A stretch of DNA of 43,002 nucleotides, taken from a virus (lineage: Duplodnaviria; Heunggongvirae; Uroviricota; Caudoviricetes). Under the pieces are notes generated by a model, which saw only the letters and a program-made list of their open reading frames with translations, did no database searches and was not told where the DNA came from. Positions within the stretch are counted from its first letter, which is position 1, and each line of letters opens with the position of its first letter. Both the position numbers and the translations under genes were made by a program. Positions 1 to 36,734 of this stretch are shown piece by piece. The stretch lies in the IMG/VR virus record IMGVR_UViG_2740892012_000013, positions 1-43,002 of that record; one strand, given 5' to 3'.

Positions 1-516
1 ATGAAATTTAAAAAATGTCTTCTGCCTGTGGCAATGTTAGCGTCATTCACTCTGGCAGGATGCCAGTCAAATGCTGATGATCATGCCGCCGATGTTTATC
101 AAACCGATCAACTGAATACCAAACAAGAAACTAAAACCGTTAATATTATTTCCATTCTTCCCGCAAAAGTTGCCGTAGACAACGCCCAAAATAAACGGAA
201 CGCACAAGCCTTCGGCGCGCTTATTGGCGCTGTCGCTGGCGGTGTTATCGGCCACAACGTCGGGTCTGGCAGCAATTCCGGAACGACGGCAGGTGCAGTT
301 GGCGGCGGAGCTGTAGGCGCGGCAGCGGGTTCTATGGTGAATGATAAAACCTTAGTGGAAGGTGTTTCTTTAACATATAAGGAAGGCACCAAAGTGTATA
401 CCTCCACCCAAGTGGGTAAAGAGTGCCAGTTTACGACAGGTTTAGCCGTTGTTATTACCACGACGTATAACGAAACGCGTATTCAGCCAAATACCAAATG
501 TCCTGAAAAGAGCTAA
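1..516 (+). CDS. Glycine-zipper lipoprotein (SlyB/Pcp-like architecture); probable host or moron gene
   Basis: ORF starts at window position 1; signal-like N-terminus with lipobox LAGC; Gly/Ala-rich zipper stretch (GALIGAVAGGVIGH...GAVGGGAVGAAAG). Family by eye only. Confidence 0.55.
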   Translation: MKFKKCLLPVAMLASFTLAGCQSNADDHAADVYQTDQLNTKQETKTVNIISILPAKVAVDNAQNKRNAQAFGALIGAVAGGVIGHNVGSGSNSGTTAGAVGGGAVGAAAGSMVNDKTLVEGVSLTYKEGTKVYTSTQVGKECQFTTGLAVVITTTYNETRIQPNTKCPEKS

Positions 517-531
517 TAATCAGGAGGAGTC

Positions 532-1071
532 ATGAAGAAAGTTTTTCTTTGCGCCATCTTAGCCTCCTTAAGCTATCCGGCTATCGCCTCATCATTGCAG
601 GATCAACTCTCGGCTGTCGCAGAAGCGGAACAGCAAGGTAAAAATGAAGAGCAAAGGCAGCATGACGAATGGGTCGCGGAGCGCAACAGGGAAATCCAGC
701 AAGAGAAGCAACGTCGCGCAAACGCCCAGGCCGCGGCTAATAAAAGAGCGGCAACGGCAGCAGCGAATAAGAAAGCTCGTCAGGATAAACTGGACGCCGA
801 AGCCACTGCGGACAAAAAACGCGATCAAAGTTATGAAGATGAGCTACGTAGCTTAGAGATTCAGAAACAAAAACTGGCGCTGGCGAAAGAAGAAGCCCGC
901 GTTAAGCGCGAAAACGAATTTATCGATCAGGAACTGAAGCACAAAGCTGCGCAAACCGATGTGGTGCAATCTGAAGCTGACGCAAACAGAAATATGACTG
1001 AAGGCGGTCGCGATCTGATGAAAAGCGTGGGTAAAGCAGAAGAGAATAAATCAGATAGCTGGTTTAACTAA
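532..1071 (+). CDS. Secreted coiled-coil protein, function unknown
   Basis: Strong SD (AGGAGG) 6 nt upstream of ATG; signal-peptide-like N-terminus (AIASS); highly charged K/E/Q/A-rich body typical of coiled coil; followed by terminator. Confidence 0.55.
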   Translation: MKKVFLCAILASLSYPAIASSLQDQLSAVAEAEQQGKNEEQRQHDEWVAERNREIQQEKQRRANAQAAANKRAATAAANKKARQDKLDAEATADKKRDQSYEDELRSLEIQKQKLALAKEEARVKRENEFIDQELKHKAAQTDVVQSEADANRNMTEGGRDLMKSVGKAEENKSDSWFN

Positions 1072-5930: not shown

Positions 5931-5947
5931 ATTACCTTTCAGGTAAT
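5931..5947. promoter_or_regulatory. Operator-like 17-bp palindrome ATTACCTTTCAGGTAAT (perfect)
   Basis: Perfect 7-bp inverted repeat with 3-bp spacer; one of about 12 related sites in the window; in the divergent region between tailspike and the 6023 gene. Confidence 0.6.
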
Positions 5948-5983
5948 TTGCAAAACGTGCTGGATAGCAAACAAATTATTTGC

Positions 5984-6003
5984 TACTGTATAAATATACA
6001 GTT
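5984..6003. promoter_or_regulatory. LexA (SOS) box candidate TACTGTATAAATATACAGTT
   Basis: CTGT-N8-ACAG with AT-rich spacer, about 17/20 to the E. coli consensus TACTGTATATATATACAGTA; ends 20 bp upstream of the ATG at 6023. Confidence 0.65.
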
Positions 6004-6022
6004 ATTGCATGGAGAAGATAAG

Positions 6023-6280
6023 ATGCAGCAGTATCACTATCCACTGGAAGACGGATTTACCGAAAGGATTCACACGCCGGGAGGCGTCAGGTCACTGGTG
6101 GAGGGATCGCACTTGATGAAATTACTCCGGGATCTCGATAAGGATGGATTTAATGTCGATGGCCCACTTGCCGAACTGACTGCACTGATTAACTACGTCA
6201 CCAGCTCACAGATGTCTATGCAGGATCTGCAAACACATCTCGACTATTGTGCCGAACAATTACGAAAACAAACCACATAA
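6023..6280 (+). CDS. Small protein homologous to the shared C-terminal domain of the two antirepressors (ORF6C-like); candidate SOS-controlled antirepressor module
   Basis: SD GGAGAAG before ATG; 85 aa ...RIHTPGGVRSLVEGSHLMKLLRDLDKDGFNVDGPLAELTALINYV... aligns with ...SLIHSPSGVLGLTENSLLMNLLNQLQEDGHDVSGAAAELTTMFCYIV... of 7749-8444 and 9710-10648. Confidence 0.5.
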   Translation: MQQYHYPLEDGFTERIHTPGGVRSLVEGSHLMKLLRDLDKDGFNVDGPLAELTALINYVTSSQMSMQDLQTHLDYCAEQLRKQTT

Positions 6281-7338: not shown

Positions 7339-7355
7339 ACTACCTTTAGGGTAAA
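7339..7355. promoter_or_regulatory. Operator-like palindrome, imperfect (ACTACCTTTAGGGTAAA)
   Basis: Matches ATTACCT-N3-AGGTAAT at most positions; immediately upstream of the 7327 start. Confidence 0.4.
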
Positions 7356-7463
7356 CATTCTATCGAAAGTATACGCTCACTGGCAAAAAAATAGGCAGGT
7401 ATTTTCTGAAATGGGATCAATCAAACCACATAGGGTTGAAATGACGTGAGTTATGCATTTATC

Positions 7464-7480
7464 ATTACCTTTGCGGTAAA
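7464..7480. promoter_or_regulatory. Operator-like palindrome (ATTACCTTTGCGGTAAA)
   Basis: Left half-site perfect, right half 5/7; in the 7328-7748 divergent intergenic region. Confidence 0.45.
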
Positions 7481-7571
7481 TTTACATTGCACTCCTCTTG
7501 TGCCATAGTAATCGGGCACTGGCAAAATCCAGTGCCGGGATTGGCGTTCCGGATTACTAAAAGGCGCATTC

Positions 7572-7591
7572 ACCGCGCAAGCGGTTTTTTT
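7572..7591 (+). terminator. Intrinsic terminator-like hairpin inside the 5' intergenic region of the Bro-N gene
   Basis: ACCGC-GCAA-GCGGT stem-loop followed by TTTTTTT; preceded by a longer hairpin (GGCACTGG...CCAGTGCC at about 7515-7540). Confidence 0.5.
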
Positions 7592-7748
7592 ATGCGTATA
7601 GCACGGCCACATTCGTATTATGGTGGGCTGTGTGGGGGCACCGAAAGGTGCGCCGGGTCCTTTTAGCCGGTTACGCCAACCCTGCACAGTTCACCACCAA
7701 CCGATTGGCGTCGGTAGTGGTGATTAACCAGACTAAAAGGTAACCACT

Positions 7749-8444
7749 ATGACAGCTACAAAAAGCACGTCCATTTTTTCTTTCGAATCCCAAGCCGATA
7801 TACGAGTAATCGTCATAAATGGTGAGCCATGGTTTATCGCTTCAGATGTTTGTCGGGCTATAGGCATAGCAAACCATCGAGATGCTGTTCGAAAACTTGA
7901 TGATGATGAGAAGGGCGTCGCTTCAACCGACACCCCTGGCGGTGAGCAAGAATCGATCATCATCTCCGAGTCAGGCCTCTACACACTGATCCTCCGCTGC
8001 CGCGACGCAGTGACACCAGGCACTATCCCCTACCGCTTTCGTAAATGGGTTACAGGTGAGGTTCTTCCTCAGATCCGCCGCACCGGAAGTTACATTAAAA
8101 ACTCGCTCCCGCAGGAAGAACGCATAAAGATGGTTGCCGACCAGGTAGCCAACGCCACAGCATCAGCAGTGATGCAGGCAATGAAGATAGAGAACAAAAC
8201 CTACAGCGCCCCACTGAAGCCCGGCTACCGCAGTTTGATTCACTCGCCGTCTGGTGTTCTCGGCCTGACGGAGAACTCACTGCTGATGAATCTGCTGAAC
8301 CAGTTACAGGAAGACGGGCACGACGTATCGGGCGCGGCGGCGGAGCTGACCACCATGTTCTGCTACATCGTCGGTGTGAGCAAATGCCTGCGTGATATCC
8401 AGACCCACGCGGAGTACATCAACGACAAGGCAGGGTTCTTCTGA
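7749..8444 (+). CDS. Antirepressor with N-terminal Bro-N domain and shared C-terminal (ORF6C-like) domain
   Basis: N-terminus FSFESQADIRVIVINGEPWFIASDVCRAIGI...ESGLYTLILRC...PYRFRKWVTGEVLPQIRRTGSY is a classic Bro-N signature; C-terminal ~75 aa near-identical to that of 9710-10648. Confidence 0.75.
   Translation: MTATKSTSIFSFESQADIRVIVINGEPWFIASDVCRAIGIANHRDAVRKLDDDEKGVASTDTPGGEQESIIISESGLYTLILRCRDAVTPGTIPYRFRKWVTGEVLPQIRRTGSYIKNSLPQEERIKMVADQVANATASAVMQAMKIENKTYSAPLKPGYRSLIHSPSGVLGLTENSLLMNLLNQLQEDGHDVSGAAAELTTMFCYIVGVSKCLRDIQTHAEYINDKAGFF
8211..8444. repeat. Left arm of ~234-bp near-identical inverted repeat (3' end of Bro-N antirepressor gene)
   Basis: Reverse complement of 9710-9943 with only a handful of mismatches by eye. 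Confidence 0.8.
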
Positions 8445-8509
8445 CGAGCGGCGGCACAGGGATGTGCCTTTAAAATAATCATTGGCGATGTGATGTAGAT
8501 TCGCGTAAT

Positions 8510-8526
8510 ATTACCTTAAAGGTAAA
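8510..8526. promoter_or_regulatory. Operator-like palindrome ATTACCTTAAAGGTAAA
   Basis: Near-perfect inverted repeat about 40 bp upstream of the 8568 start codon. Confidence 0.55.
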
Positions 8527-18876: not shown

Positions 18877-21347
18877 CAGAATCCCCCAACAGTAAGGCGA
18901 GGAATAACGGCAAGAACAGACAGCGGCAACGGATCAAGCTGACGGATTTTTACACGTCCGTTTTTGCCCCAGTTACTGTCCAGTTTCACTTCTACTTTTC
19001 CGGTAGCATCATCAACAGGATCATCGTAGAACTCGAATTCACGCTGTGGATATTCGTACCATTTACCGCCGGGCGTAGTCGCCCAGATGCCGCGACTGGC
19101 ATTCACAACCAGAGTAACGGAGGGGATCACCTGTTTTTTGTCCAGCAGCGTTTCCTGTCCGTTAATGTTGATATCCAGTGTTTCGAATTCAGCAGTTATT
19201 GGCAGGCCGATGTGCACTACAGCCCCCGGTGATTCCAGCGTGACGGCACCTCCGGAAACCACTTTCTGTGGTTCCACGTTCGCATCAGAGAGAATGTTTA
19301 CGGTCTGGCCTTCAAGATGAGACAGGCCTCCAAATGTCCGGCGCGCCATCTGCCAGTTCGTGGTGGCCACATTCCTGAGGGATGGCGGGACGTTCCTGTT
19401 AGCACGAACCACTACAGCGGTATTGCTGGTTACAGAAATAATGTCGCAACGTAATTCTTTTGACACTTCATCGCCAGTACCAGGATCAGTTCCGGCATAA
19501 GGGAACTGTAGTTGCGCGCCGACATCACTACTGGTGAAGTACGCACCACCAGAAATACTGATTGTATATTCCGCGCGGTAATCCCATTCACCAGAACCAC
19601 CAGTGATGGTCATCGTTCTGTCAGACGTATTTCTTCCATCATAGCTAAGGCCAGAATCAACAAAGAAAGCATCTTCATCGCTGGTAAATAAACGGCTGGA
19701 CAGTCGCTCGATGTATCTCACTGTTTGCCCGTTAACGGTTCGGTTAACGACGAAATACACCGCATCTTCATTTCCTTCGCTGATACTGCATGTGCTTTCA
19801 TATTTTCCGGTACTGGATTGTGGTGCCCATGCAAAAACCTGCTGATCACGCAAATAGGTCATCACCAGTAATTTACCGTCATCACGAATGCAGAAGGCGC
19901 TGGAGTAAGGGACAATAGAGAAGCACCAGTCAACAATACTGTGCTTCTGAAAAAGATGATTGGCAAGGATGGTCAGGTCGTTCCCCTGATAGCCGTCAAC
20001 ATCGAATGAGTAGGCCAGATCACGGACAACACTGCCTTTCTCCTGGACGAACAGAGCAATATTCGCCACGGCAATTGGTGGGACATTGCTCGAGCCATTT
20101 GATCCCTGAGAGCTGAATGCAAATGATGATGGGGTAAGCACTTTGTTCTGGTCGCCAGTGATGACGTACTCACCTCCGGAAGTCAGCGCCACCAGCGAAC
20201 CAACATCAATCAGGTGACGGATCTCATTAACCTGACGCCCGGCATAGGTGTAGATAATTCTGTCGTCATCCTGCGTAGGATTGCTTTTGCCAAAATCCTT
20301 ATAATCCCCGGTACGGCTGGCCCAGATAGTCTGAGGAAACGCAGTCGATGCGGCGAAGTAAAGACGTTGTTGATAATAAACAACAGTGCCAGGATAACCA
20401 TTAACACTGTTCCAGGCATATTTAGCCCATTTATAGCTGGCATTATCCTCGCCAACTACCTGCGAAGGGATATAGGAAATCACCTCGGCAGTTGCAGTAG
20501 TTCCATTTGCAGCAGTGATACGGGCAATGCCAAAACCACTGTGCAGATATTCCCACTCAATGCCAGTATCATCATCACCGGATCCGCCCCAGCCATCCCA
20601 TGATGTGCCTTCTGTATGCGAAGGGCGCAAAGTACCTGTTTTGCCTGCTTTAACGGCGCGATAGTAGTTACTGTCTGCTCGGCGAATATCGCCAATCGAC
20701 GTACTCTTACTGGTTTCCCATACCGGCACAGAATCCACTGCAGGCTGTTCCAGATAGAACAATTTGCCTACCTGCTCCGCGCCAAAAATAGAGGCGCTTG
20801 CCGTTAGCGTAATTGTCCCGGTGCTGGCGCTGGCATAAACCGTCACTGACTCGTCAATATTGATATCTTCAAATGGCCCGTTCTTCGTTACCACATCAAC
20901 CAGTTGCCAGTTGTCATGCGCATAGCGGCGCAACTCTTTCGGCGGGTATGCCGGATGAACAAGCGTAAGCACGTCGGCGCTTTGCGTGAATTTAATTCGG
21001 AACAGATCGGCTTCAGTATATGGCGTGGCAATTTCATAAATAACATTGCTGCTGTTCAGCACCAACGCACCATCTTTGATAACGCGCATGTACTGGTGTC
21101 CGAACTCCAGAGCATAGGTCTGAACCGTCGAGAACTGGAACGGGATCAGGCGGCATTTCCGATTTGGGTATTTGGCGGCACCGACAAAACGCGTACCTGG
21201 TCGATTCTCAACGCCGCCATACTGCCGCACGATAAAGTTATCGCACTTGCGCAATGCCACCTGGTACTTCGCCATGTCAATACGCCCGTACAACGACGGT
21301 CCAATCTCACCACCGGCAAAGCTGGGCTGGATCCAACTGATAGCCAT
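18876..21347 (-). CDS. Tail tube / tail hub protein (large)
   Basis: 823 aa following an adaptor-sized gene and preceding internal proteins, the position of T7 gp12-type proteins; no motif-level confirmation. Confidence 0.65.
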   Translation of the reverse strand: MAISWIQPSFAGGEIGPSLYGRIDMAKYQVALRKCDNFIVRQYGGVENRPGTRFVGAAKYPNRKCRLIPFQFSTVQTYALEFGHQYMRVIKDGALVLNSSNVIYEIATPYTEADLFRIKFTQSADVLTLVHPAYPPKELRRYAHDNWQLVDVVTKNGPFEDINIDESVTVYASASTGTITLTASASIFGAEQVGKLFYLEQPAVDSVPVWETSKSTSIGDIRRADSNYYRAVKAGKTGTLRPSHTEGTSWDGWGGSGDDDTGIEWEYLHSGFGIARITAANGTTATAEVISYIPSQVVGEDNASYKWAKYAWNSVNGYPGTVVYYQQRLYFAASTAFPQTIWASRTGDYKDFGKSNPTQDDDRIIYTYAGRQVNEIRHLIDVGSLVALTSGGEYVITGDQNKVLTPSSFAFSSQGSNGSSNVPPIAVANIALFVQEKGSVVRDLAYSFDVDGYQGNDLTILANHLFQKHSIVDWCFSIVPYSSAFCIRDDGKLLVMTYLRDQQVFAWAPQSSTGKYESTCSISEGNEDAVYFVVNRTVNGQTVRYIERLSSRLFTSDEDAFFVDSGLSYDGRNTSDRTMTITGGSGEWDYRAEYTISISGGAYFTSSDVGAQLQFPYAGTDPGTGDEVSKELRCDIISVTSNTAVVVRANRNVPPSLRNVATTNWQMARRTFGGLSHLEGQTVNILSDANVEPQKVVSGGAVTLESPGAVVHIGLPITAEFETLDININGQETLLDKKQVIPSVTLVVNASRGIWATTPGGKWYEYPQREFEFYDDPVDDATGKVEVKLDSNWGKNGRVKIRQLDPLPLSVLAVIPRLTVGGF

Positions 21348-26825: not shown

Positions 26826-26842
26826 ATTACCTTTCAGGTAAC
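26826..26842. promoter_or_regulatory. Operator-like palindrome ATTACCTTTCAGGTAAC
   Basis: Near-perfect copy of the recurring motif; TTGACA hexamer 16 bp upstream on the + strand (26805-26810). Confidence 0.5.
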
Positions 26843-27163: not shown

Positions 27164-27240
27164 GTGGCATTAGCTCAGTTGGACAGAGCAACCGCCTTCT
27201 AAGCGGTTGGTCGCAGGTTCGAATCCTGCATGCCACGCCA
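27164..27240 (+). tRNA. tRNA-Arg (anticodon UCU, reads AGA)
   Basis: Folded by hand: 7-bp acceptor stem GTGGCAT/ATGCCAC, D-arm GCTC...GAGC, anticodon stem ACCGC/GCGGT with loop CTTCTAA, T-arm GCAGG-TTCGAAT-CCTGC, discriminator G, encoded CCA. Confidence 0.9.
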
Positions 27241-27438: not shown

Positions 27439-27846
27439 ATGAACGACCAGCAAATCGAAAAAGAAATCGTTGAGAAAGGCAAAACGGCACCGCGTGTAAC
27501 ACCTGAGAAAATTGAAGGCCTCATTTGCAGTGAGCATTTTTTCACTGCTGCGCAGGGTGATCACCAGGCTAAAGAAGATGACCTTATTTATAATCCGGAG
27601 CCTTATGTCGAAGCCACCCCTGATGCTCTGCACCTTCTCACTTTCTGCGTACTGGTGCTGAAGAATGGCTTCACTGTCACCGGAGAGAGTGCCTGTGCAA
27701 GTCCGGAAAATTTTGATGCAGAAATTGGTCGGAAGATTGCCCGGCAGAATGCTGTAAACAAAATCTGGATGCTTGAAGGTTACTTGCTGAAGCAGAAGTT
27801 AAGCGAGCAACAACACAGTGACATGTCACAAACAGCCAGCCGATGA
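27439..27846 (+). CDS. Hypothetical phage protein (moron next to tRNA)
   Basis: SD AAGGTGAG before ATG; 135 aa; own terminator hairpin overlapping the stop (about 27835-27860); opposite strand to flanking late genes. Confidence 0.55.
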   Translation: MNDQQIEKEIVEKGKTAPRVTPEKIEGLICSEHFFTAAQGDHQAKEDDLIYNPEPYVEATPDALHLLTFCVLVLKNGFTVTGESACASPENFDAEIGRKIARQNAVNKIWMLEGYLLKQKLSEQQHSDMSQTASR

Positions 27847-27903: not shown

Positions 27904-29379
27904 TTAAGCATACGGGTCATAATCTGTGATGGCCTTGCCTTGCTGGTTCTGCTGCCAGGGAAGTCGCAGGCGCTTCGACACCGGGAAAGCAAACGTCAGC
28001 AGCAGCGCATCGCCTTTACCCGGCGAACGCCCAAGTCGCTCTTTGATATCTTCCTTCGGTTCGATAACGATTTTACCGTCCACTCGAACTTTGTACTCTG
28101 CCGCCGACAGGTCGTCTGCAGTTTCCTGGTCATCCAGCATGCCGCCCAGCCTCAGCCATGTCTTACATGAGTTGAACATCTCCCCACGCTTGTTGAGCAT
28201 CTGCGGGTCAGTAGACGCGCCACCGAACGGAACAAGTTGCCATGTACGACCCCAGCCGTCACCGATTGACTTCAGACCAGTTCCGTAACCGAAGTCGATG
28301 AACACTGCGTCAGCCTGGTACTGGTCTTCAAAGTCAGCGATACGCTTCGCCATAATCAGATCGTCAGTGGTCTTGTTGCCAGTCCACAGCACCTTACTGT
28401 GCAGCCCCTGCCGCAGGTATATCACAGCGTCATCAACGCCTGAGTATGCCGGGTCAACGCCGATTATCACCGGAGCATGTGCAACCTGCGCAGCGGTGAC
28501 CACCCGTTTCATTGCCTCGTCAGTAAGTCCGGTAGGGATAAACTGCAATTCAGATGCATCCGGGAATATGCCGCGCACACGGATTTTAACGAAGTCGCTG
28601 TCTTCCCCGTAGTCATCAACCCATTTCTGCAACTGCTGTTTGTTGGTGCCTTCCACCGTCCGGCTGTCAATCTGCGCAGTTTTCCAGCGGTGTTTATATT
28701 TGCGGAAACATTCGCGGAAACGTCCGGTATTACGCGTCGGGTTTCCGAACGCCACCCAGATAATCTCAGTGTCTTCGTCCGTTAGCGCACCCTCGGCAAC
28801 TTCCCACACCAGATCCGCAATGTTCGACGCTTCATCGAATACCACGATGATGCGTTTGCGCTCGTTGTGTAGTCCGGCGAATGCCTCAGTGTTGTGCTCA
28901 GACCAGGGTATTGCGTCAGCTCGCCACCGCTTGTCGTGTCCAGGATCATTGCTGTACATCGCGGTAGCGGTACAGGTAAACCAGTCTTTCGTGATAGCAA
29001 GGTTCGACCACTTGATAATTTCCGGCCAGGTCTTCGTTCGTAGCTGGTTGTCGGTGTTGGCGGTCACCACAACCTTACAATCCTCGCAAGTGGACATGCC
29101 CCAGTTGATCAGCATTGAGATGAATGCGGATTTACCAATACCGTGACCCGAAGCGCGTGCCAGCATAAGCGGCTGATAGCGCGTCTCTGGATTCTGCAGG
29201 TGATCACGTATCTCTCGGAACGCATCAGCCTGCCACTGACGTGGACCGGTGGCATGTGCCAGTTCAGTCCCATCTTCCCCCCACGGGAACGCATAGAGGG
29301 CATAGCCAAGCGGATCGTGAGTGAACCCTGCAATATCCTCGATTAACTGCTCTTCAGGAGATAACGCTGTATCTGTCAC
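27904..29379 (-). CDS. Terminase large subunit
   Basis: 491 aa; GTG start overlapping TerS stop (GTGA); ATPase-like Walker A region (...ARASGHGIGKSAF...) and C-terminal nuclease-sized domain. Confidence 0.85.
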   Translation of the reverse strand: MTDTALSPEEQLIEDIAGFTHDPLGYALYAFPWGEDGTELAHATGPRQWQADAFREIRDHLQNPETRYQPLMLARASGHGIGKSAFISMLINWGMSTCEDCKVVVTANTDNQLRTKTWPEIIKWSNLAITKDWFTCTATAMYSNDPGHDKRWRADAIPWSEHNTEAFAGLHNERKRIIVVFDEASNIADLVWEVAEGALTDEDTEIIWVAFGNPTRNTGRFRECFRKYKHRWKTAQIDSRTVEGTNKQQLQKWVDDYGEDSDFVKIRVRGIFPDASELQFIPTGLTDEAMKRVVTAAQVAHAPVIIGVDPAYSGVDDAVIYLRQGLHSKVLWTGNKTTDDLIMAKRIADFEDQYQADAVFIDFGYGTGLKSIGDGWGRTWQLVPFGGASTDPQMLNKRGEMFNSCKTWLRLGGMLDDQETADDLSAAEYKVRVDGKIVIEPKEDIKERLGRSPGKGDALLLTFAFPVSKRLRLPWQQNQQGKAITDYDPYA

Positions 29380-30008
29380 TGATTACCATCCTGACGTTCT
29401 TTGAGTCGCTTCCTGGCTGCTGCTATGCGATCAGCAATTGTCACATTCACATTAACATCCAGACGTTCTTTGAATGCGTTGACATCAACATGCTTACCAA
29501 TCAGCTCAAGGTTCTTCACCTTGTCAGGCCATTTCACCTTCTTCAGGATATGCTCGACATCCTCAACAGAGAGATCCGCCTCGCCATTCTCTTTTTGCAG
29601 GGAAGCCTGGGTTGTCTTGATGGTAGCGATATCCATAGCACTGAGAGAGGTACGCCAGACCTTCGGCCATTCAGCGATCGGCTTCATCCCGCCGTCATCG
29701 TTCAGTATATCCAGCACGTCCATCTGGTCGATCTCCACCAGGCGCATGAGAACGTAATCAGCACTGACGCGCATTCGTTTGTTGCGCTCCTCCATCAACT
29801 CGGCAATCCGTTTTTGAATGCGTTCATCGCGCATCATGACACTTGCTTTAACTGCCGCTGTATTTGGGGAGAATCCTGCGTTAATCGCTGCCTGAGTCTG
29901 GTTTTCAGGCGTTTTGATGTATGACTGGCAATAAGCCTCCTGCATTGCTGTTAGTGGCTTAAATTGCGTTGATTTACGTTTATAGGTTTTAGGTTCAGCA
30001 GGCATCAT
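29376..30008 (-). CDS. Terminase small subunit
   Basis: From ATG at 30008 (SD GGTGG): ...KPLTAMQEAYCQSYIKTPENQTQAAINAGFSPNTAAVKA... matches TerS HTH-like motif; directly upstream of TerL. Confidence 0.7.
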   Translation of the reverse strand: MMPAEPKTYKRKSTQFKPLTAMQEAYCQSYIKTPENQTQAAINAGFSPNTAAVKASVMMRDERIQKRIAELMEERNKRMRVSADYVLMRLVEIDQMDVLDILNDDGGMKPIAEWPKVWRTSLSAMDIATIKTTQASLQKENGEADLSVEDVEHILKKVKWPDKVKNLELIGKHVDVNAFKERLDVNVNVTIADRIAAARKRLKERQDGNQ

Positions 30009-30015
30009 AACCACC

Positions 30016-30047
30016 GTGGTAATAGTTACCGTTGTGGTAATAGTACC
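30016..30047. repeat. Tandem direct repeat GTGGTAATAGT(T)ACC x2 just upstream of TerS start
   Basis: Copies at 30016-30030 and 30034-30047; each contains GGTAAT...ACC (operator half-sites in inverted order). Confidence 0.5.
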
Positions 30048-30050
30048 ATG

Positions 30051-30077
30051 CAAAATAAAGCCGCCATAGTTGGCGGC
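30051..30077 (-). terminator. Intrinsic terminator between nin-like block and TerS (minus strand)
   Basis: On the minus strand GCCGCC-AACTAT-GGCGGC followed by TTTATTTTG. Confidence 0.55.
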
Positions 30078-30082
30078 AGTAT

Positions 30083-30295
30083 TCAAAGTCCATCAAATTC
30101 ATCGTAAAAACTCTCGTCAAGATACCATTCCCATTTACCGCGAATGAAAATTACATCCTCGCCGCAAGGGTGCTGACTGTCGATAACTATATCCCTCCTG
30201 GCGCAACCATACTTATTCATGAGAAATTTAACCTCTTTCGGAAAATTTGCTGAGTTATCTCTCATATCTTCAAGGTCGTAGCGTATTTTTGGCAT
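30083..30295 (-). CDS. Hypothetical small protein
   Basis: ATG at 30295 with SD AAGGTG; 70 aa. Confidence 0.45.
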   Translation of the reverse strand: MPKIRYDLEDMRDNSANFPKEVKFLMNKYGCARRDIVIDSQHPCGEDVIFIRGKWEWYLDESFYDEFDGL

Positions 30296-30312
30296 AACAC
30301 CTTCGTGACATG

Positions 30313-30651
30313 TCACACTATTAATTTCGTTTCATGCCAGCCTTTGGTCACCCAGCATTGCGAGTCACCATTACACGGGCATGAATTAACTGGAACTCTC
30401 TCGCCGCACTTACCGCAACGTTTTCTGCTGATCGATTTTATACGCCCGCGCACGCGTGCATCATCCTGGCGGATCAGTAACGCTATATACTCACCAAATT
30501 CGTAAGGCGCACGCCCGGGGCGACGCGTGGCACAGTTACGCTCCAGCATTTCAATTTCCTGAGCATCAAGCACAATTTCCAGCTTACGCACACCAGATGC
30601 AGCTTGTCTGGCTCTCTGAGCGGCTTTGCGCTCTGCTGCTGATTTAGCCAT
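30313..30651 (-). CDS. Hypothetical protein with C-terminal Cys cluster (possible zinc-binding regulator)
   Basis: ATG at 30651; Arg/Ala-rich N-terminus and C-terminal RKRCGKCGERVPVNSCPCNGDSQCW. Confidence 0.45.
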   Translation of the reverse strand: MAKSAAERKAAQRARQAASGVRKLEIVLDAQEIEMLERNCATRRPGRAPYEFGEYIALLIRQDDARVRGRIKSISRKRCGKCGERVPVNSCPCNGDSQCWVTKGWHETKLIV

Positions 30652-30686
30652 CAATATTTACCTTTATCGCGAACACATTTACCGGT

Positions 30687-30929
30687 TTATCTCCTTTGCA
30701 TAGCACGTAATTTTTTCAGATGGTTCTCCTGTTCTGTTTCAGCCAGGATCTGGTGATATTCTCTGTGATCAATGTGTTCGAATAAATTATTGAATTTTCT
30801 GATGCACACTCTTCCAGGATAGCCATCCATCCTCTTGAAGAATACTGAGTGATCAGTACTACGAATGATTTTTACTGGATAGCCAGCGCTATCGGTGTAT
30901 ATCTGACCACGTTGAATCAGAGAGAACAT
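30687..30929 (-). CDS. DUF4222-like small phage protein
   Basis: 80 aa with ...FFKRMDGYPGRVCIRKFNNLF..., resembling DUF4222 prophage proteins from memory. Confidence 0.4.
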   Translation of the reverse strand: MFSLIQRGQIYTDSAGYPVKIIRSTDHSVFFKRMDGYPGRVCIRKFNNLFEHIDHREYHQILAETEQENHLKKLRAMQRR

Positions 30930-30995
30930 TCGTTTATCCCCAGATAAAAATATAGCAATACCAATTACATAAAATACTTCAGGCCAAGCATCATT

Positions 30996-31778
30996 TCACC
31001 CCTGCGGCGGTTCTGGTAGAGGCATCCAATTGATTACATCGCATTTAGGGATGCTGATATCATCACCAAGCCACCCTTGACCTTCAGACCAGCATTGCAC
31101 GTAATACCCGTATTCTGTGTTCACTACGCACCACTGCGCGTCGTTCGGCATTCGATCACTACAGCTTATCCAACCATCCGGAGTTACCGGAAGCGAGAAC
31201 GGCAGCACATCTCTGTGAACAAGTTTTTGCTGTGACAGGTTATCCAGAACTTTCTGTACTGCTGCATCACCGAATACACCAAGCGCATCTGCCATAACTC
31301 CTACAACCTGATAAGCCTCAGCGCATACCGTGGATAAACCATCCGGAATTACCGGATAGTTGGTTGACGTTTCCGCGATTTCCCGAAAATTATTGGTTGA
31401 CGAATTCTTATTTTCCCGAAAGTTTCCGGACTGAAGCATGGCGGCGCGGCAGGCGTTCCAGCCATCTGCGTAACAATCTCTGTGTGTCTTGAAATATGTC
31501 ACCGCCCTTGGTACATCGTTTACGTCTATTTCATCCGGCACAACCGGCGCAGGTGAGTCAGCATAAACAGGAATAACGTCCGGTTGCTCTTTATTGCTTT
31601 CATCCGTTAAAGCCCAGAATAATTTCCCGGCCGGATGTTTGAAAATATAAGCAACTGGTTCTGCTTCCAGTGATGCCAGCGCAATCCGTGCCAGTTCCAT
31701 TTGTTCACCACGGGTAAGCCCGTTTTCAAGCGGATTTTTAATGAACAATTCAATACGTTCTTTGGTAATAGTGGTCAT
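30996..31778 (-). CDS. DUF551-domain phage protein
   Basis: SD AAGGAG; C-terminal ...WISCSDRMPNDAQWCVV...VQCWSEGQGW...VINWMPLPEPP typical of DUF551. Confidence 0.55.
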   Translation of the reverse strand: MTTITKERIELFIKNPLENGLTRGEQMELARIALASLEAEPVAYIFKHPAGKLFWALTDESNKEQPDVIPVYADSPAPVVPDEIDVNDVPRAVTYFKTHRDCYADGWNACRAAMLQSGNFRENKNSSTNNFREIAETSTNYPVIPDGLSTVCAEAYQVVGVMADALGVFGDAAVQKVLDNLSQQKLVHRDVLPFSLPVTPDGWISCSDRMPNDAQWCVVNTEYGYYVQCWSEGQGWLGDDISIPKCDVINWMPLPEPPQG

Positions 31779-31788
31779 GTGTTACTCC

Positions 31789-32052
31789 TTAACCCGCAGT
31801 GCTTTCAACTGATGAGGGGAACAAAATCCTTTCATCAAATCCGGCATTCATATCATGGACAGCAACACACCAATCCATCGACGAACGATTATCAAGAGCC
31901 TCCATGATTTCATCCATGCGGCGCAGGTCATACAGGTAAATGCTTTTATCGCCAATGGTGTAAAAACCAATTTTTTTCGGTGATGGGCAGCGATCAAGAA
32001 CGTCCTGTAATTCGTTCAACCATGCCCGTTCTTTTTTTGTTAAAGTTGCCAT
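31789..32052 (-). CDS. Hypothetical small phage protein
   Basis: ATG at 32052 with SD AAGGAG (MATLTKKERAWL...). Confidence 0.5.
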   Translation of the reverse strand: MATLTKKERAWLNELQDVLDRCPSPKKIGFYTIGDKSIYLYDLRRMDEIMEALDNRSSMDWCVAVHDMNAGFDERILFPSSVESTAG

Positions 32053-32053
32053 A

Positions 32054-32647
32054 TCACTCTCCTTTGATGCGAATGCCAGCGGCGCGGGAATCATTCCATC
32101 GCTTTACTTCTTCACGAATTACGTCAATGCATTCTTTCGAATCCATTAGGTAATCTTCATCAAAAAGACGTTCCTGTTCGTTTTCTATCGCAACAATGAT
32201 TGCTTCAACTAACTTTTGTGCCTGAGAATCACTTTCTAACTCTGCTATGCGCTTACTTCCATCCGAGATAACGCCCTCGTAATACTCACGCTGCTCGTTG
32301 AGTTTTGATTTTGCCAACTCCAGTTGTTTTGTTAGTTCCGCAATACGGCAAACATCGTTGATACGCGTTTCCTCTAATGCGTTGATCTCATCCAACAATG
32401 CCAGCGCAACATTTGGATTAAAAGCAGCAATAAATTCAGCGTTTGCATAAGCCTGAACATCTGTTTCAACCAGGCAGTTAACATGACATTCTGCAATCAC
32501 GCCACCGGGTTCTCCTTTCCATTTTTGGCAAACAAAAACTCCTGTTAAATTGCCGTGCTGGTTAACAGATGTATGCCCTACGATGTAGCTCCCTTTCGTT
32601 GCCTTTTCTGCCGCATCACGCAGTGCCTGATAATTAATTTCGCTCAC
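32054..32647 (-). CDS. Ead/Ea22-like protein
   Basis: GTG start with SD GGAGGA; N-terminus SEINYQALRDAAEKATKG and central coiled coil typical of Ead/Ea22-like prophage proteins. Confidence 0.55.
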   Translation of the reverse strand: MSEINYQALRDAAEKATKGSYIVGHTSVNQHGNLTGVFVCQKWKGEPGGVIAECHVNCLVETDVQAYANAEFIAAFNPNVALALLDEINALEETRINDVCRIAELTKQLELAKSKLNEQREYYEGVISDGSKRIAELESDSQAQKLVEAIIVAIENEQERLFDEDYLMDSKECIDVIREEVKRWNDSRAAGIRIKGE

Positions 32648-32868
32648 TCTTCATCCTCCAAGTCGGCAACGGCGTCCATCACATCAGAACCGCGAATAAC
32701 CTCAAAAGCACGGCAGGCCATTTGAAATACCAGTTGCTCTTGCGGGTGAGGAGACTCCCAATATTTGAAGCCTGGGCGATGCGTGTACCCCATCATTGAA
32801 TAAAAATCACCAGCAAGCTTAATCGCGGCATCGACAAGCTCTCTGTTAGTCATTCTTTTTCCGCTCAC
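32644..32868 (-). CDS. Hypothetical small phage protein
   Basis: GTG start with SD AAGGAGG; translationally coupled to neighbours. Confidence 0.45.
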   Translation of the reverse strand: MSGKRMTNRELVDAAIKLAGDFYSMMGYTHRPGFKYWESPHPQEQLVFQMACRAFEVIRGSDVMDAVADLEDEE

Positions 32869-33302
32869 TGGTTGCCTCCTTTGCGAAGCTGGGCGGCTAA
32901 CTCATCACATATGTGCGTCAAAGAACAAAGTTTGATTGATGGATGTTCGCGCATCATCTCTACCCCCTGCGCCCGCACTTCAGACAGGAAAGCATCGGTG
33001 GCTGGCATATTTCCTGTTGCCTTCATTGCCTCCAAAATAACCAGAACGCCATCTCGCCCAATCTCCTCGCAGATAACCTCGGTGCTGTCGCCAACAACAT
33101 CGCAAAATGCCTGAACTGCTTTACGAGCCAGCGCATTCTCCGCAGCCAGCGCATTAGCACGCACCAGTTGCACTTCCAGCTGCGTTGCCAAATCGCTGAT
33201 CAGCTTTGCCACACTGCGCATATCAACGGCACCACATTCTGCTTTCAGTTCCGAAGCCATCTCATGCCCGGCGGAAACTAACCCTTTGATATTACTTTCC
33301 AT
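32865..33302 (-). CDS. Hypothetical phage protein
   Basis: SD GAGGG before ATG at 33302; 145 aa helical protein. Confidence 0.5.
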   Translation of the reverse strand: MESNIKGLVSAGHEMASELKAECGAVDMRSVAKLISDLATQLEVQLVRANALAAENALARKAVQAFCDVVGDSTEVICEEIGRDGVLVILEAMKATGNMPATDAFLSEVRAQGVEMMREHPSIKLCSLTHICDELAAQLRKGGNQ

Positions 33303-33363
33303 CTTTACCCTCGCTTATCCACATAACTTATTGATTACATTGATAACTAAAAAGATCGTCGAT

Positions 33364-33972
33364 TCATGCCGATCTATTTTTCATCAGTGATTCATAAAAC
33401 TTTTGCCACTTATGCCGACCGAAATTAGCCTTCGAGTTACAGCTCGAACAAAGGCAAATAAGGTTCTCCTGACGACAATCTTGCTTGTCGTAATTGATGT
33501 GATGAGTTGTTAGCCTTTTGTCTGTTCCATCACAACCTGGGTTCTGACAAGTAAAACCATCTCGCTCAATAACCCTCTTGCTCGTTTCTCGGAAATCCCA
33601 CGGATACGGCAATCTCGATAATCCACCAGACCAGTTTGGATTTCCTTCCCCCTTCATCAGAGAAGAACGCATTATGTTGGAACACTGTTTCGAGCAGCAT
33701 TTATGACGCTTCTCATGACTCAAGAAAACGGAGAACGAAGATCCGCATACGCAGCATATTTTTAATACTCGCTTTAGTTCCCGATTTACCGTCTTGCCTC
33801 GCTGTGAAATTCCTACACACTGAAGTGAGCAGAACCTTGAAGATGAGTTGGCTCGCTTAACCTGATATTGCCTGCCACATACGGAGCAAACCTTTTCGAT
33901 TTTCCCACCCTTCCAATTCGGGTTTTTATCACCGGATACAATCAATCCCGCAGCATTGGGCTTCTCGCTCAT
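33364..33972 (-). CDS. HNH endonuclease
   Basis: Multiple CxxC pairs and ...TTHHINYDKQDCRQENLICLCSSCN... HNH motif. Confidence 0.7.
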   Translation of the reverse strand: MSEKPNAAGLIVSGDKNPNWKGGKIEKVCSVCGRQYQVKRANSSSRFCSLQCVGISQRGKTVNRELKRVLKICCVCGSSFSVFLSHEKRHKCCSKQCSNIMRSSLMKGEGNPNWSGGLSRLPYPWDFRETSKRVIERDGFTCQNPGCDGTDKRLTTHHINYDKQDCRQENLICLCSSCNSKANFGRHKWQKFYESLMKNRSA

Positions 33973-34322
33973 AGTTCCTCAACCTCCCATCCACCACCGA
34001 GCTTTTTAGGTTTTGGATAAGCAACCTGAAAGACAAACGGATAGCTGTCTGCCGCAACCTTCATCTTGACTCTCGCATCGTCAGTAAAGACTGACTTACT
34101 TCCCTTAACGTCCACCATCACCAACTGCCCGTCAGCCAACATCACGGCAAAATCTACAGTCAGGAAGCAGTTGTCAGCTAACCGTAGCTTGATACCCTCG
34201 AATCGATACCAGGCGATTTCCCCTGCACGTTTACGAAGCTCAAGGTGCTGGCAATACGCAGATTCTGTTTTGTTCATCTGGCCTGTTTTGAGTCGACCAA
34301 GAGCCTGTATCTGTTTTCTCAT
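33969..34322 (-). CDS. DUF1064-like protein (nuclease-like fold suspected)
   Basis: 117 aa; ...ESAYCQHLELRKRAGEIAWYRFEGIKLRL...FTVDFAVMLADGQLVMVDVKG resembles DUF1064 proteins from memory. Confidence 0.5.
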   Translation of the reverse strand: MRKQIQALGRLKTGQMNKTESAYCQHLELRKRAGEIAWYRFEGIKLRLADNCFLTVDFAVMLADGQLVMVDVKGSKSVFTDDARVKMKVAADSYPFVFQVAYPKPKKLGGGWEVEEL

Positions 34323-34324
34323 GA

Positions 34325-34403
34325 TTTACCCCTGAGGTAATTAAAAACCACATAAGACACGAAATCAATAGATTTTAGAATATTTTATTACCTAACAGGT
34401 AAT
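34325..34403. promoter_or_regulatory. Two operator-like palindromes upstream of the DUF1064-like gene (34325-34341 imperfect; 34387-34403 perfect ATTACCTAACAGGTAAT)
   Basis: Motif copies in the P / nin-like intergenic gap. Confidence 0.55.
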
Positions 34404-34439
34404 TGTCGAGGCGTAAAAAAATGCGCTATCGCGCTGGTA

Positions 34440-35240
34440 TTACTTGATAAATCCTGCCGCCTTTCCCCGCCTGTATTCCTCCATCAGCCACTGCGCCGGT
34501 GTTATTCCCCCCAGGGTAGCGGCGTTAGGCATACACCCGAAACTTCGCCCTGGTGGATGGTAAACGTCTCTCCCTGTGTCCGGAGGCGTACTCATGGGTT
34601 CTGGCTTTGCCTGTATGCTGATCACCGGATCGGGTATCTGCTGTCCGGAAGCCACCTTTTTCGCCCAATCATCAAGCAGCCTGCGCGCGTGTTTCTCAAC
34701 CTCAATCTCGCTAAGCTGGCGCTGATACATTGCACGGCGGGTATCACATACGACCCAGTACATAACCGGATGCCGCCACGGGAATCTTTCGGGACCACCA
34801 GGATATAAACTTTTTTCCTTGCTGTACCGGTGAAACTCCGCCATCACATCGTCAATGGTGACGCCAAGAACCATCTTGCTGTCTTTACACCACTTGATAA
34901 ATTGCCCTGGCGACGGCCAGAACGGAGATTCACTGGCGCGGGCGTGGCGCATACCAGCAGAAACCTGTTCACGGGTTCGGATCCCCCCTTCGGCAAACGC
35001 AGCAATCCACTGCTGTTTTGCAGCAACTTCCTGCTCTGGCGTCTTCAGGTTGGTTACCACTGCCGCCGGAAACAGTTGTTTCAGCTGTTTAAAAAGGGCA
35101 TCAACAAGCCTCTCTGCTGACATGTTCACCACATTGTCATTGTTGACGTACTGATGCTCATAACCTGACATGCGAGAAAGGGCTTCTCCGTCACGGTTTT
35201 GTATCGCGGTAAAAACGTTGTTCACAAGAAATCCTCCCAT
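34440..35240 (-). CDS. Replication protein P-like (DnaB helicase loader)
   Basis: ...FPAAVVTNLKTPEQEVAAKQQWIAAFAEGGIRTREQVSAGMRHARASESPFWPSPGQFIKWC aligns with lambda P (...FPASLANRDQNEVNEIRRQWVLAFRENGITTMEQVNAGMRVARRQNRPFLPSPGQFVAWC, from memory). Confidence 0.8.
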   Translation of the reverse strand: MGGFLVNNVFTAIQNRDGEALSRMSGYEHQYVNNDNVVNMSAERLVDALFKQLKQLFPAAVVTNLKTPEQEVAAKQQWIAAFAEGGIRTREQVSAGMRHARASESPFWPSPGQFIKWCKDSKMVLGVTIDDVMAEFHRYSKEKSLYPGGPERFPWRHPVMYWVVCDTRRAMYQRQLSEIEVEKHARRLLDDWAKKVASGQQIPDPVISIQAKPEPMSTPPDTGRDVYHPPGRSFGCMPNAATLGGITPAQWLMEEYRRGKAAGFIK

Positions 35241-36037
35241 GCTTCAGGGCTGTTCCAGTGCGGAACGTTGTTATCAGGTAATGTTGATTGCTTCTGTCTG
35301 CTAATCTGCAGCCGCCTTGCCAGCTTCTGCTCCCACTGTGCCTGATGGTATGCCTTACCCTCAGCCATCCAGTAAATTCTGAACTCTGCAAGTTCCTGTG
35401 CCGTTGGCAGACTGTCCAGGTAGATCCCCTGCAATGAGCTTTTCCGAAGAAAGTCATCTGATGGCTGCCATTGTTCATGCATGACAAATTTGCCTAATTG
35501 CCCTGGCCCACCAGGAGGAACAAAGTTATTCATCACGGCGTTGTTTGCTCCGGGGTCATGAGGCACAGAATCCCCGCTTTTTGTCCTGCTCTCCCTCTCT
35601 TGGTTAAATGACTGGTTATATGACTGGTTCTGGATCCCGTTTTTGGGATCATTCAACATCCCGTTTTTGGGATCATTCAACATCCCGTTTTTGGGTATAT
35701 TCCCGTTTTCGGGTATATTCCCGTTTTCGGGTTCATTGCCCCCCTCCCGGTTGCCTTTAATGTTCCCGTTTTTGGTTATATTAAGAGAGAAAACCCGCAC
35801 TCTTTTTGTCGCTCCCTTTCTCTCTCCGGTATCTGAAATAATCCCCATTTTCATGAGCGATATAAGCCCGGCCTGCACGGTTTTTTTATTCAGGCAAGTG
35901 TCTTTAACGAGGCGTTCTATGCTGGGGTAGCAGAGGTTATATTCATCGGCTCTGTCAGCCATCGAGAGCAGTATGAGCTTTAATGATGAGCTACCTGGAT
36001 CTGTCTCCCAAGCCCAATCTGTTGCATGTCTGCTCAT
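35222..36037 (-). CDS. Replication initiator, lambda O-like, with internal origin repeats
   Basis: SD GGAGAT; N-terminal HTH-like region; central peptide repeats (NGNIPENGNIPKNGMLNDPKNGMLNDPKNG) encoded by DNA iterons; followed by overlapping P-like gene. Confidence 0.7.
   Translation of the reverse strand: MSRHATDWAWETDPGSSSLKLILLSMADRADEYNLCYPSIERLVKDTCLNKKTVQAGLISLMKMGIISDTGERKGATKRVRVFSLNITKNGNIKGNREGGNEPENGNIPENGNIPKNGMLNDPKNGMLNDPKNGIQNQSYNQSFNQERESRTKSGDSVPHDPGANNAVMNNFVPPGGPGQLGKFVMHEQWQPSDDFLRKSSLQGIYLDSLPTAQELAEFRIYWMAEGKAYHQAQWEQKLARRLQISRQKQSTLPDNNVPHWNSPEAWEDFL
35636..35782. repeat. Iteron array (candidate phage replication origin) inside the O-like gene
   Basis: Six direct repeats with core CCCGTTTT(T/C)GG: two 24-bp copies (35636-35659, 35660-35683), three 18-21-bp copies (35684-35740), one more at 35765-35782. 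Confidence 0.7.
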
Positions 36038-36052
36038 GATTAATCTCCGCTA

Positions 36053-36253
36053 TCAGCTTGAATGTTGTGGGGAGGAATTAATCATGATCTGCTTAATCTC
36101 TGCCCTGATGCGACGGTTTGACTCCATGGTGCACTCAACACAGTGTCCGTTGTAAACCCAGCGTTCACTGTCATGTCCGTGCTTACATGGTTTTCCGGTG
36201 TAGTAGCGTTTAAGTCCGCGCTTTGCGGCATCAATACGTGTAATGATTTCCAT
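36053..36253 (-). CDS. Small zinc-ribbon protein at the cII position
   Basis: ATG at 36253; 66 aa with KRYYTGKPCKHGHDSERWVYNGHCVEC (Cys/His cluster). Confidence 0.45.
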   Translation of the reverse strand: MEIITRIDAAKRGLKRYYTGKPCKHGHDSERWVYNGHCVECTMESNRRIRAEIKQIMINSSPQHSS

Positions 36254-36332
36254 GGTAAGCCCTGTTATTAGTATTGGGATTACGGTTATTTTGTGCTGAC
36301 ACAAAAAAAAGATCAACCAGATTTGGTTTTTT

Positions 36333-36349
36333 ATTACCTTTGAGGTACG
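36333..36349. promoter_or_regulatory. Operator-like palindrome ATTACCTTTGAGGTACG
   Basis: Left half perfect, right half 5/7; lies between a hairpin downstream of the Cro-like gene and the Zn-ribbon gene. Confidence 0.45.
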
Positions 36350-36403: not shown

Positions 36404-36634
36404 TCATGAGTAGAAGAAGTATGCCAGTTCCGCTTTTGAGCGCAGCCATTGTCTTGTTTTACATGCTTTAAAAAGCCCATTCATCAATACCTTACCTGGC
36501 ATTTTGCGCTTACCTGTTAAGTGAGTCTGGATATAGTGACTCGTCGTTCCGGCTTCCTGTGCGAAGGCTTCACGCTCATCCGGAGTAAGTGCAAGCCAGT
36601 GCTTTTTGAAATCGAAATGTCCGTTATCGCTCAT
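36404..36634 (-). CDS. Cro-like HTH DNA-binding protein
   Basis: 76 aa; HTH-like segment EAFAQEAGTTSHYIQTHLTGKR; first gene leftward from the divergent operator region. Confidence 0.5.
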   Translation of the reverse strand: MSDNGHFDFKKHWLALTPDEREAFAQEAGTTSHYIQTHLTGKRKMPGKVLMNGLFKACKTRQWLRSKAELAYFFYS

Positions 36635-36679
36635 AGCTATTGCCTGATATTTATTTCAGATAATAAATATTCACCCATA

Positions 36680-36734
36680 AGGTAACAAAAATCAAGGATA
36701 GTTACCTATGGGGTGCATTTACCTGTTGGGTAAT
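36680..36734. promoter_or_regulatory. Divergent immunity-region operators (clustered half-sites)
   Basis: AGGTAAC (36680-36686), GTTACCTATGGGGTGCA (36701-36717) and TTTACCTGTTGGGTAAT (36718-36734) in the 154-bp gap between Cro-like and repressor genes. Confidence 0.55.

Follow-up and report, generated by a model that had tools for sequence, protein, structure and literature searches.

The region that controls the packaging genes terS and terL in this phage is probably governed by the phage's own immunity repressor, Rep, acting through two adjacent palindromic operators. The window, meaning the whole stretch of DNA analysed (43,002 nucleotides), derives from an epsilon15/phiV10-like temperate podophage (Uetakevirus), and the region upstream of terS matches phages of E. 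coli, Salmonella, Enterobacter and Klebsiella. The first-pass annotation had described a minus-strand terminator followed by two direct repeats at the terS start codon, and had proposed a late-promoter activator or antiterminator site, or a packaging recognition site. That observation holds: the terminator is real and the element is regulatory. The proposal as a whole is only partly supported, as the regulator and the mechanism it put forward were wrong. In epsilon15 an operator and a terminator are annotated at the same place; the feature is their orthologue in an E. coli phage and is thus already known. The present analysis adds a second operator over the ribosome-binding site, a common register of -10 elements and operators, and recurring operator spacings of 17-18 bp and 62 bp.

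The terS upstream region and its terminator

The genes and the terminator around the terS start are as follows.

29376-30005, minus strand: terS, small terminase (Pfam Terminase_2), with the conserved start codon ATG at 30005-30003
30051-30077, minus strand: rho-independent terminator of the early-right operon, with the stem-loop GCCGCCA-ACTA-TGGCGGC at 30077-30060 and TTTATTTTG at 30059-30051
30083-30316, minus strand: 77-aa ORF (phrog_1541), an accessory gene; its stop codon (TGA at 30085-30083) lies just before the terminator
30313-30651, minus strand: Cys-cluster protein (phrog_536, 'transcriptional regulator'), homologue of epsilon15 gp49 and N15 gp46

Read along the minus strand, the order is TGA ATACT GCCGCCA-ACTA-TGGCGGC TTTATTTTG CAT GGTACTATTACCAC AAC GGTAACTATTACCAC GGTGG TT ATG ATG CCT. 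The segment at 30051-30077 has the properties of a predicted intrinsic terminator, with a G+C-rich hairpin (7-bp stem containing 6 G-C pairs, 4-nt loop), a U-tract directly after it and the stop codon of the 77-aa ORF upstream. It was the top terminator-like match in a 2-kb scan. Its RNA folded with -16.2 kcal/mol (z = -6.8), and none of 200 shuffled sequences was as stable. The epsilon15 record gives the orthologous stem-loop (39646-39672) as a rho-independent terminator, in agreement with the terminator called in the first pass.

The same-strand genes upstream of terS constitute the early-right set: replication initiator, helicase loader, resolvase, HNH, several DUFs, phrog_536 and phrog_1541. 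terL follows terS. Compared to epsilon15, the window carries the 77-aa ORF as an additional gene before the terminator; in phiV10, TL-2011b and PAS61 this ORF is reduced to an 8-codon remnant. Note that the first base of the phiV10 record directly follows the last gene's stop codon, that the Tyrion record opens 2 nt later, and that the openings of the phiV10, Tyrion and epsilon15 records all lie just upstream of the hairpin. These openings presumably reflect convention and are not evidence of physical ends.

The second of the two ATG codons (30005-30003) is the sole ATG in epsilon15 and Tyrion. It lies 5 nt 3' of the Shine-Dalgarno sequence GGTGG (30015-30011) and agrees with the RefSeq terS starts in TL-2011b, Tyrion and epsilon15. 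A start at TTG 30086, resulting in an N-terminally extended TerS as in the phiV10 and PAS61 records, was rejected: in the ATG form the Terminase_2 match begins only at residue 19, and relatives carry indels that disrupt the frame of the TTG-started ORF. With terS starting at the second ATG, the repeats therefore adjoin the Shine-Dalgarno sequence and the start codon and lie outside the coding sequence.

Tandem palindromes belonging to an immunity operator family

The direct repeats reported next to the terS start are present as sequence, in the extended form GTGGTAATAGT(T)ACC. The exact 11-mer GTGGTAATAGT occurs at 30016-30026 and 30034-30044 (spacing 18 bp), and these are its only two exact copies in the window. 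By itself this repeat is statistically unremarkable, being only weakly unexpected: about 0.5 exact 11-mer repeats within 50 nt are expected in a window of this size, and at least one arose in 34% of Markov simulations. Chance was nevertheless rejected as its origin, because the repeat is kept in relatives and belongs to a family of 14 palindromes. The direct repeat is a by-product of two tandem palindromes. Each copy ends with TTACC, the left half-site of one palindrome, plus the following AC. The downstream copy starts with GGTAA, the right half-site of the first palindrome; at the start of the upstream copy stands an orphan GGTA, part of the -10 element described below. As a half-site this orphan is badly conserved, reading GGTAC, GTTAC, GATAG or GGTAT in variants.

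The palindrome TTACC-N5-GGTAA, with at most one mismatch, occurred 14 times in the window compared to 0.73 copies expected, and none of 100 shuffled sequences reached this number. All sites are intergenic, outside supported genes, and are two-fold symmetric without orientation bias. Immunity and anti-repressor loci account for most of the 14 copies. The sites cluster to either side of rep, with three on the cro side (one of them with two mismatches) and two on the far side. The sites, none of which has a strand of its own, and the genes of the immunity region are listed below.

30026-30040: operator O-terS1, a perfect palindrome (minus strand TTACC ACAAC GGTAA)
30008-30022: operator-like site O-terS2, one mismatch (minus strand TTACC ACGGT GGTTA)
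36671-36733: OR-type operator cluster in the gap between the cro-like gene and rep, with sites at 36671 (one mismatch), 36702 (two mismatches) and 36719 (perfect)
37431-37507: OL-type operator pair beyond rep, with sites at 37431 and 37493, 62 bp apart; the 37493 site overlaps the -10 of TTGACA-17-AATTAT
34326-34402: two operators 62 bp apart that precede the resolvase gene within the early-right operon; epsilon15 counterpart at 35907/35969
26827-26841: operator with the late genes of the portal side on one flank and the divergent unit of tRNA-Arg and ORF 27439-27846 on the other; corresponds to the annotated repressor site 2931-2947 of epsilon15
5932-5946: operator in the gap between the tailspike gene (3176-5827, minus strand) and an Ant-like gene; corresponds to the annotated repressor site 19895-19911 of epsilon15
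7340-8525: three operators around the Bro-N anti-repressor gene (7749-8444), at 7340, 7465 and 8511
36334-36348: one-mismatch operator TTACCTTTGAGGTAC (22.0 bits), which completes the family of 14; it lies in the gap that separates ORF 36053-36316 from the cro-like gene
36404-36634, minus strand: cro-like gene, bordering the OR-type cluster
36789-37373, plus strand: immunity repressor Rep, the predicted operator ligand; full-length match to SPC32H Rep (PDB 5D50, E = 4e-42)

The terS sites were scored with a position weight matrix (PWM) trained only on the 12 sites elsewhere, over 42,980 window positions and with 20 shuffles as control. O-terS1 scored 19.0 bits (rank 13 of 42,980), directly below the 12 training sites and above the shuffle maximum of 15.8 bits. 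It is the weakest of the ten sites with a perfect core, deviating from the favoured extension TTACCT...AGGTAA, and scored lower than the one-mismatch site at 36334. O-terS2 (4.7 bits, rank 31 of 42,980) is not significant genome-wide when taken alone. It is located 18 bp from O-terS1, covers the Shine-Dalgarno sequence GGTGG and ends 2 nt before the conserved ATG. Palindromes 17 bp apart are also found at OR, both here (36702/36719) and in epsilon15 (33341/33358). The terS pair thus copies an arrangement native to the immunity region.

The same palindrome flanks rep and is present in 14 copies, which argues that the terS element is a repressor operator and not an activator, antiterminator or packaging signal. 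Window Rep is 100% identical to the repressors of phiV10 and ZX5 and ~42% identical overall to the proteins of epsilon15 and SPC32H, with the N-terminal half aligning to SPC32H Rep without gaps. A Rep homologue was found in all Uetakevirus records among those listed (a spread sample). The relatives found all had full-length homologous Rep (42-100% identity) with a common DNA-binding domain, together with unchanged half-sites, and so offered no contrast in which operator and immunity type change together. Rep has been described as tetrameric and as binding palindromic sites (PMC9638917), with a tetramerisation domain of the looping type (PMC9986798). Overexpression of the ZX5 repressor, ORF21, abolished free phage and lowered endolysin and holin transcripts by >99.9% (PMC9782041).

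In the epsilon15 RefSeq record (NC_004775.2), positions 12-27 (TTACCAAAACGGTAAT) are labelled as a protein_bind feature, 'repressor', assigned to lysogeny, directly before terS (47..643). Six further 'repressor' sites are given, all of the form ATTACC-N5-GGTAAT; these features may be predictions only. The site at 12-27 is the positional orthologue of O-terS1, lying between terminator and terS with matching sequence around it. A one-mismatch site at position 30 has the same offset as O-terS2 and is without annotation; unlike the analysis presented here, the record marks only the first terS operator and not one over the ribosome-binding site. The palindrome is similarly enriched in epsilon15 (15 copies versus ~1 expected) and in SPC32H (18 versus ~1), at syntenic positions. 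Half-sites and 5-bp spacer are as in the epsilon15 'repressor' sites and the Rep/Ant immunity system of Salmonella phage SPC32H (PDB 5D50, 5D4Z); there, too, a homologous repressor is present and the anti-repressor genes are preceded by operators, as in the window. The epsilon15 site likewise stands immediately before terS and after a matching GCCGCC...GGCGGC terminator, and the remaining sites are syntenic with those of the window at OL, OR, the pair upstream of the resolvase gene, the portal side and the tailspike side.

To assess conservation, we compared 80 IMG/VR loci together with GenBank phages, among which the sequence upstream of terS took 35 distinct forms. The core palindrome was kept in 87 of 87 related loci. 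The block always found with terS is C(A/G)TG-n-TA-n-TATTACC-N5-GGTAA, in which the arms never vary and the 5-nt spacer varies freely, indicating that the conserved unit is the inverted repeat TTACC-N5-GGTAA and not the direct repeat. Most lineages carry O-terS2 with a single mismatch; in the Klebsiella group it is degenerate. Of the 35 distinct versions, 21 have the hairpin. Where a LexA-box promoter and a umuD-like moron stand in place of the 77-aa ORF, the hairpin is absent and the operator module stays with terS. The hairpin is thus part of an exchangeable upstream module.

A candidate promoter upstream of terS and the alternative readings

One further element precedes O-terS1.

30040-30048, minus strand: candidate extended -10 element TGgTACTAT, with a predicted start site near A30033

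This element, which overlaps most of the first repeat copy, has TG one base 5' of a hexamer with T-12, A-11 and T-7, as in extended -10 promoters. Relative to TTACC, the bases T, G, T, A, T and A at -8, -7, -5, -4, -2 and -1 are invariant in 35 of 35 variants (TGnTAnTAT), and the 'n' of TGn and the third base of the hexamer vary freely. Because the TAT of the hexamer also flanks the operator, its invariance may in part be operator-derived. The same register of -10 and operator is found at TTGACA-17-AATTAT (37466-37493), TTGAAA-18-TATCAT (7465) and TTGATT-17-TTTAAT (34326, minus strand). At these three operators (37493, 7465 and 34326) the promoter matches score better, and the -10 hexamer ends on the first T of TTACC. 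The putative terS promoter lacks a -35 and matches the hexamer consensus at 4 of 6 positions. A simple scan of 29300-31300 called no classical -35/-10 promoter except inside terS. A classical promoter for terS was thus rejected, and only the extended -10 form fits. The invariant TGnTAnTAT and the register shared with three other operators favour a weak extended -10 promoter, and the sequence pattern suggests that Rep would occlude it.

We propose the following sequence of events. The intrinsic terminator would close the early-right operon and be followed by the probable extended -10 promoter TGgTACTAT, the last T of which is the first base of O-terS1. Transcription would start at ~30033, inside the first operator, and the weaker second operator would lie over the terS ribosome-binding site. 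In the lysogen, tetrameric Rep of the SPC32H/epsilon15 type would occupy the terS pair, as at the similarly spaced OR pair, and would keep RNA polymerase from initiating at terS or from reading through into it. SPC32H Rep is reportedly inactivated by an anti-repressor and not by RecA-stimulated cleavage. Upon induction, an anti-repressor may strip Rep from all ~14 operators together, releasing the packaging genes. Where lineages lack the hairpin, the promoter of a LexA-controlled moron aims straight into terS, and a roadblock role of Rep seems to be needed as well. The identity and copy number of the motif, its intergenic placement, its clustering at rep, the positional orthology with the annotated epsilon15 site and its conservation are direct observations; Rep binding at the terS pair, promoter activity and the balance between occlusion and roadblock are inferred.

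The main alternative to an occluded promoter, which we regard as possible albeit clearly less probable, is a pure roadblock of the stoperator type. The sites would then be operators without a promoter, bound Rep would stop polymerases that pass the terminator or come from morons, and late transcription after induction would be read-through from the early-right operon. Consistent with this, the terS sites lie directly 3' of the terminator within a long co-directional gene array, the element has no -35 and no promoter call in the scan, and operators are scattered over 14 intergenic gaps. Moreover, in BUCT554 and the Klebsiella lineages, which lack the hairpin, a unit of LexA-box promoter and umuD-like gene ends ~17 nt before the module, so that Rep would be the sole barrier before terS. 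In mycobacteriophage L5, many sites for the immunity repressor gp71 (stoperators) occupy short intergenic gaps, including those of the virion-gene array. The window resembles L5 in that its repressor-type sites are many, dispersed and intergenic (14 of 14). In contrast, L5 has asymmetric 13-mers, biased in orientation and shown to block elongation, whereas the sites of the window are symmetric, number ~14 compared to ~30, and in several cases overlap promoter-like -10 hexamers. The absence of orientation bias among the palindromic sites argues against a pure roadblock. Furthermore, the operator consensus does not account for the invariant TG and TA upstream, and a terminator of -16 kcal/mol would starve terS if only read-through fed it, no antiterminator gene being detectable.

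An element acting at the level of RNA appears improbable. In this case the palindromes of a read-through transcript would fold into a long hairpin that hides the Shine-Dalgarno sequence and AUG of terS. A 56-nt RNA from 30050 folded with -16.9 kcal/mol, pairing ACCAC with GUGGU of the Shine-Dalgarno region (z = -2.15; 4 of 200 shuffles as stable), and the transcript from 30033 was less structured (z = -1.1). However, no covariation was detected: paired cells amounted to 87.1% observed versus 86.9% in shuffled alignments (183 of 500 shuffles as high), the covariation score equalled the shuffle mean, and several lineages break outer-helix pairs without compensation. A search of Rfam returned no family at E <= 1. 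The pairing potential is a trivial outcome of tandem DNA palindromes.

Still less probable is a site bound by the Cys-cluster protein as late activator or antiterminator, the candidate favoured in the first pass. The protein is encoded at a Q-like position, as the last gene of the early-right operon, and combines an RHH-like N-terminus with a Cys cluster. PHROGs and RefSeq label it 'transcriptional regulator', and its gene precedes terS in all loci whose flank is long enough; it had no match in PDB or Pfam. No Q homologue is present, as had been stated earlier: the ORFs of the early-right region (30083-36037) gave no Q-like match in Pfam, PHROGs or NCBIfam. However, the homologues in N15 and ZF40 coexist with separate Q-like genes and are located away from terS, and P2-like Yersinia phages carry a homologue far from any terS. 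The palindrome is absent around those homologues, showing no enrichment there, and its distribution (both sides of rep, anti-repressor genes) fits immunity operators. In addition, the terminator is 5' of the site and not 3'. The window resembles lambda Q/qut in its position at the junction of early-right and late genes and in the nearby intrinsic terminator. It differs in the lack of a Q homologue and in a site that is multi-copy and palindromic. The order of promoter with qut, terminator and late genes is likewise not matched: the terminator lies upstream of the repeats, with nothing between these and terS, which is the wrong order for a module of the Q/qut type. What survives of the proposed control site is a conserved putative protein-binding element at the entry to terS-terL; its reading as an activator or antiterminator site fails, as the palindrome is that of the repressor operator.

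The least probable reading, marginally behind the preceding one, is a pac site at which a TerS oligomer binds repeated half-sites upstream of terS to start headful packaging, as in SPP1. Terminase_2 is the SPP1/SF6 family, in which pac overlaps the 5' end of terS. The window TerS belongs to this family and has a clade-specific basic 18-residue N-terminal extension, which more distant homologues lack, and the module is always linked to terS; against this, the palindrome recurs 13 times elsewhere, on either side of rep and before anti-repressor genes among others, where a packaging signal would be unexpected, and no such motif was found upstream of more distant TerS homologues. Searches of the literature on pac sites, termini and late regulation of epsilon15 and phiV10 returned nothing relevant, including no data on virion DNA ends. 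The suggested packaging role is therefore not upheld for a palindrome that is present 14 times and on both sides of the repressor gene.

Relation to lambda and implications for lytic control

The Rep-operator arrangement favoured here is similar to lambda OR1/OR2, adjacent operators to which CI binds cooperatively, in that a palindromic pair ~1.7 helical turns apart overlaps promoter elements, operators of one family lie on both sides of the repressor gene, and the repressor is an oligomer able to bridge sites. In contrast to the window, in which operators also spread over late and accessory transcription units, lambda has no CI operators at its late genes; these are controlled via Q at PR'. 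The terS site is another sign, modest in itself and already annotated, that epsilon15-like temperate podophages put repressor sites before virion and packaging genes, with no Q switch of the lambda type.

More tentatively, Uetakeviruses could do without a dedicated late regulator altogether, with looping-tetramer Rep directly gating every lytic transcription unit through ~14 operators in pairs of fixed spacing. The units so gated may comprise early left, early right, the anti-repressors, terS-terL, portal/head and tailspike. The spacings involved may be those of 17-18 bp and 62 bp, and the terS pair may join promoter occlusion with coverage of the ribosome-binding site. If this were true, lytic timing would be set by operator strength, with O-terS1 as the weakest site with a perfect core, and not by a cascade of antitermination or activators.

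For annotation, the speculative label of a late activator, antiterminator or pac site gives way to a pair of immunity operators, a terminator and possibly a promoter under Rep control, and the terS start is placed at the second ATG and not at the TTG of phiV10-type records. For E. coli O157, phages of the phiV10 type are in use as chassis for reporters and engineering. The positions of the Rep sites, immediately before terS, the portal region and the tailspike, are thus of practical use for payload insertion or for constructing non-lysogenic derivatives.

Paired predicted operators and the genes they border

The predicted operators of Rep, the immunity repressor, form pairs in the window with one of two fixed distances between their starts, either 62 bp or 17-18 bp, and epsilon15 has identical spacings:

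34326/34388, 37431/37493, 36702/36719 and 30008/30026: operator pairs, window
35907/35969, 32555/32617, 33341/33358 and 12/30: operator pairs, epsilon15

This pairing fits a tetrameric repressor bridging two palindromes. A predicted Rep operator also stands before each of two anti-repressor-related genes (5900-6280 and 7749-8444), one consisting of the phrog_450 C-terminal module only and the other combining Bro-N with phrog_450. The predicted operator at 7465 overlaps a strong promoter-like sequence, TTGAAA-18-TATCAT. Another predicted operator, at 26827, lies at the upstream end of a two-member unit located between the large terminase gene (terL) and the portal region:

27164-27240, strand opposite the late genes, phage-borne tRNA-Arg(UCU)
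27439-27846, strand opposite the late genes, 135-aa ORF

For the large terminase itself (27904-29379), Pfam-A gave no match at E <= 0.01; PHROGs alone identified it, through phrog_5902 and phrog_2.

The region between the Cys-cluster gene and terS in relatives

Between the Cys-cluster gene and the small terminase gene terS, where the window has its 77-aa ORF, two relatives carry a umuD-like moron instead: BUCT554 (L006 2095-2160) and Klebsiella phage ST11-OXA245phi3.2 (L007 2584-2650). A near-consensus LexA box (TACTGTTTAAATGTACAGTA) overlaps the moron's own promoter, TTGACT-17-TACTGT, and both lineages are without the terminator hairpin. Therefore, a predicted SOS-inducible promoter faces the Rep operators and terS directly in these phages.

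The end of the Cys-cluster gene is marked by a palindrome that overlaps its stop codon:

30306-30317, perfect 12-bp palindrome, GTGACATGTCAC

This element is conserved in BUCT554, the Klebsiella phage, PAT1 and epsilon15, where it shows one-base variants, and the records of phiV10 and Tyrion open within it. A copy of the Cys-cluster gene with 92% identity is present in Escherichia phage Chlobot (L088 2994-3472), where it adjoins integrase and excisionase genes. In the Chlobot record this copy is annotated in two pieces, one of 47 aa called 'transcriptional regulator' and the other called 'UmuD-like protein', suggesting a disrupted or mis-annotated gene outside any terS context.

Repeats within the replication-initiator gene

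Direct repeats of 24 bp, in three to four copies, are located within the replication-initiator gene and are followed by one more repeat, spaced by 18 bp:

35222-36037, minus strand, replication-initiator gene (phrog_1032)
35634-35722, 24-bp direct repeats (ATCCCGTTTTTGGGATCATTCAAC...)

These repeats look like an iteron-type origin of the kind found in lambdoid O genes.
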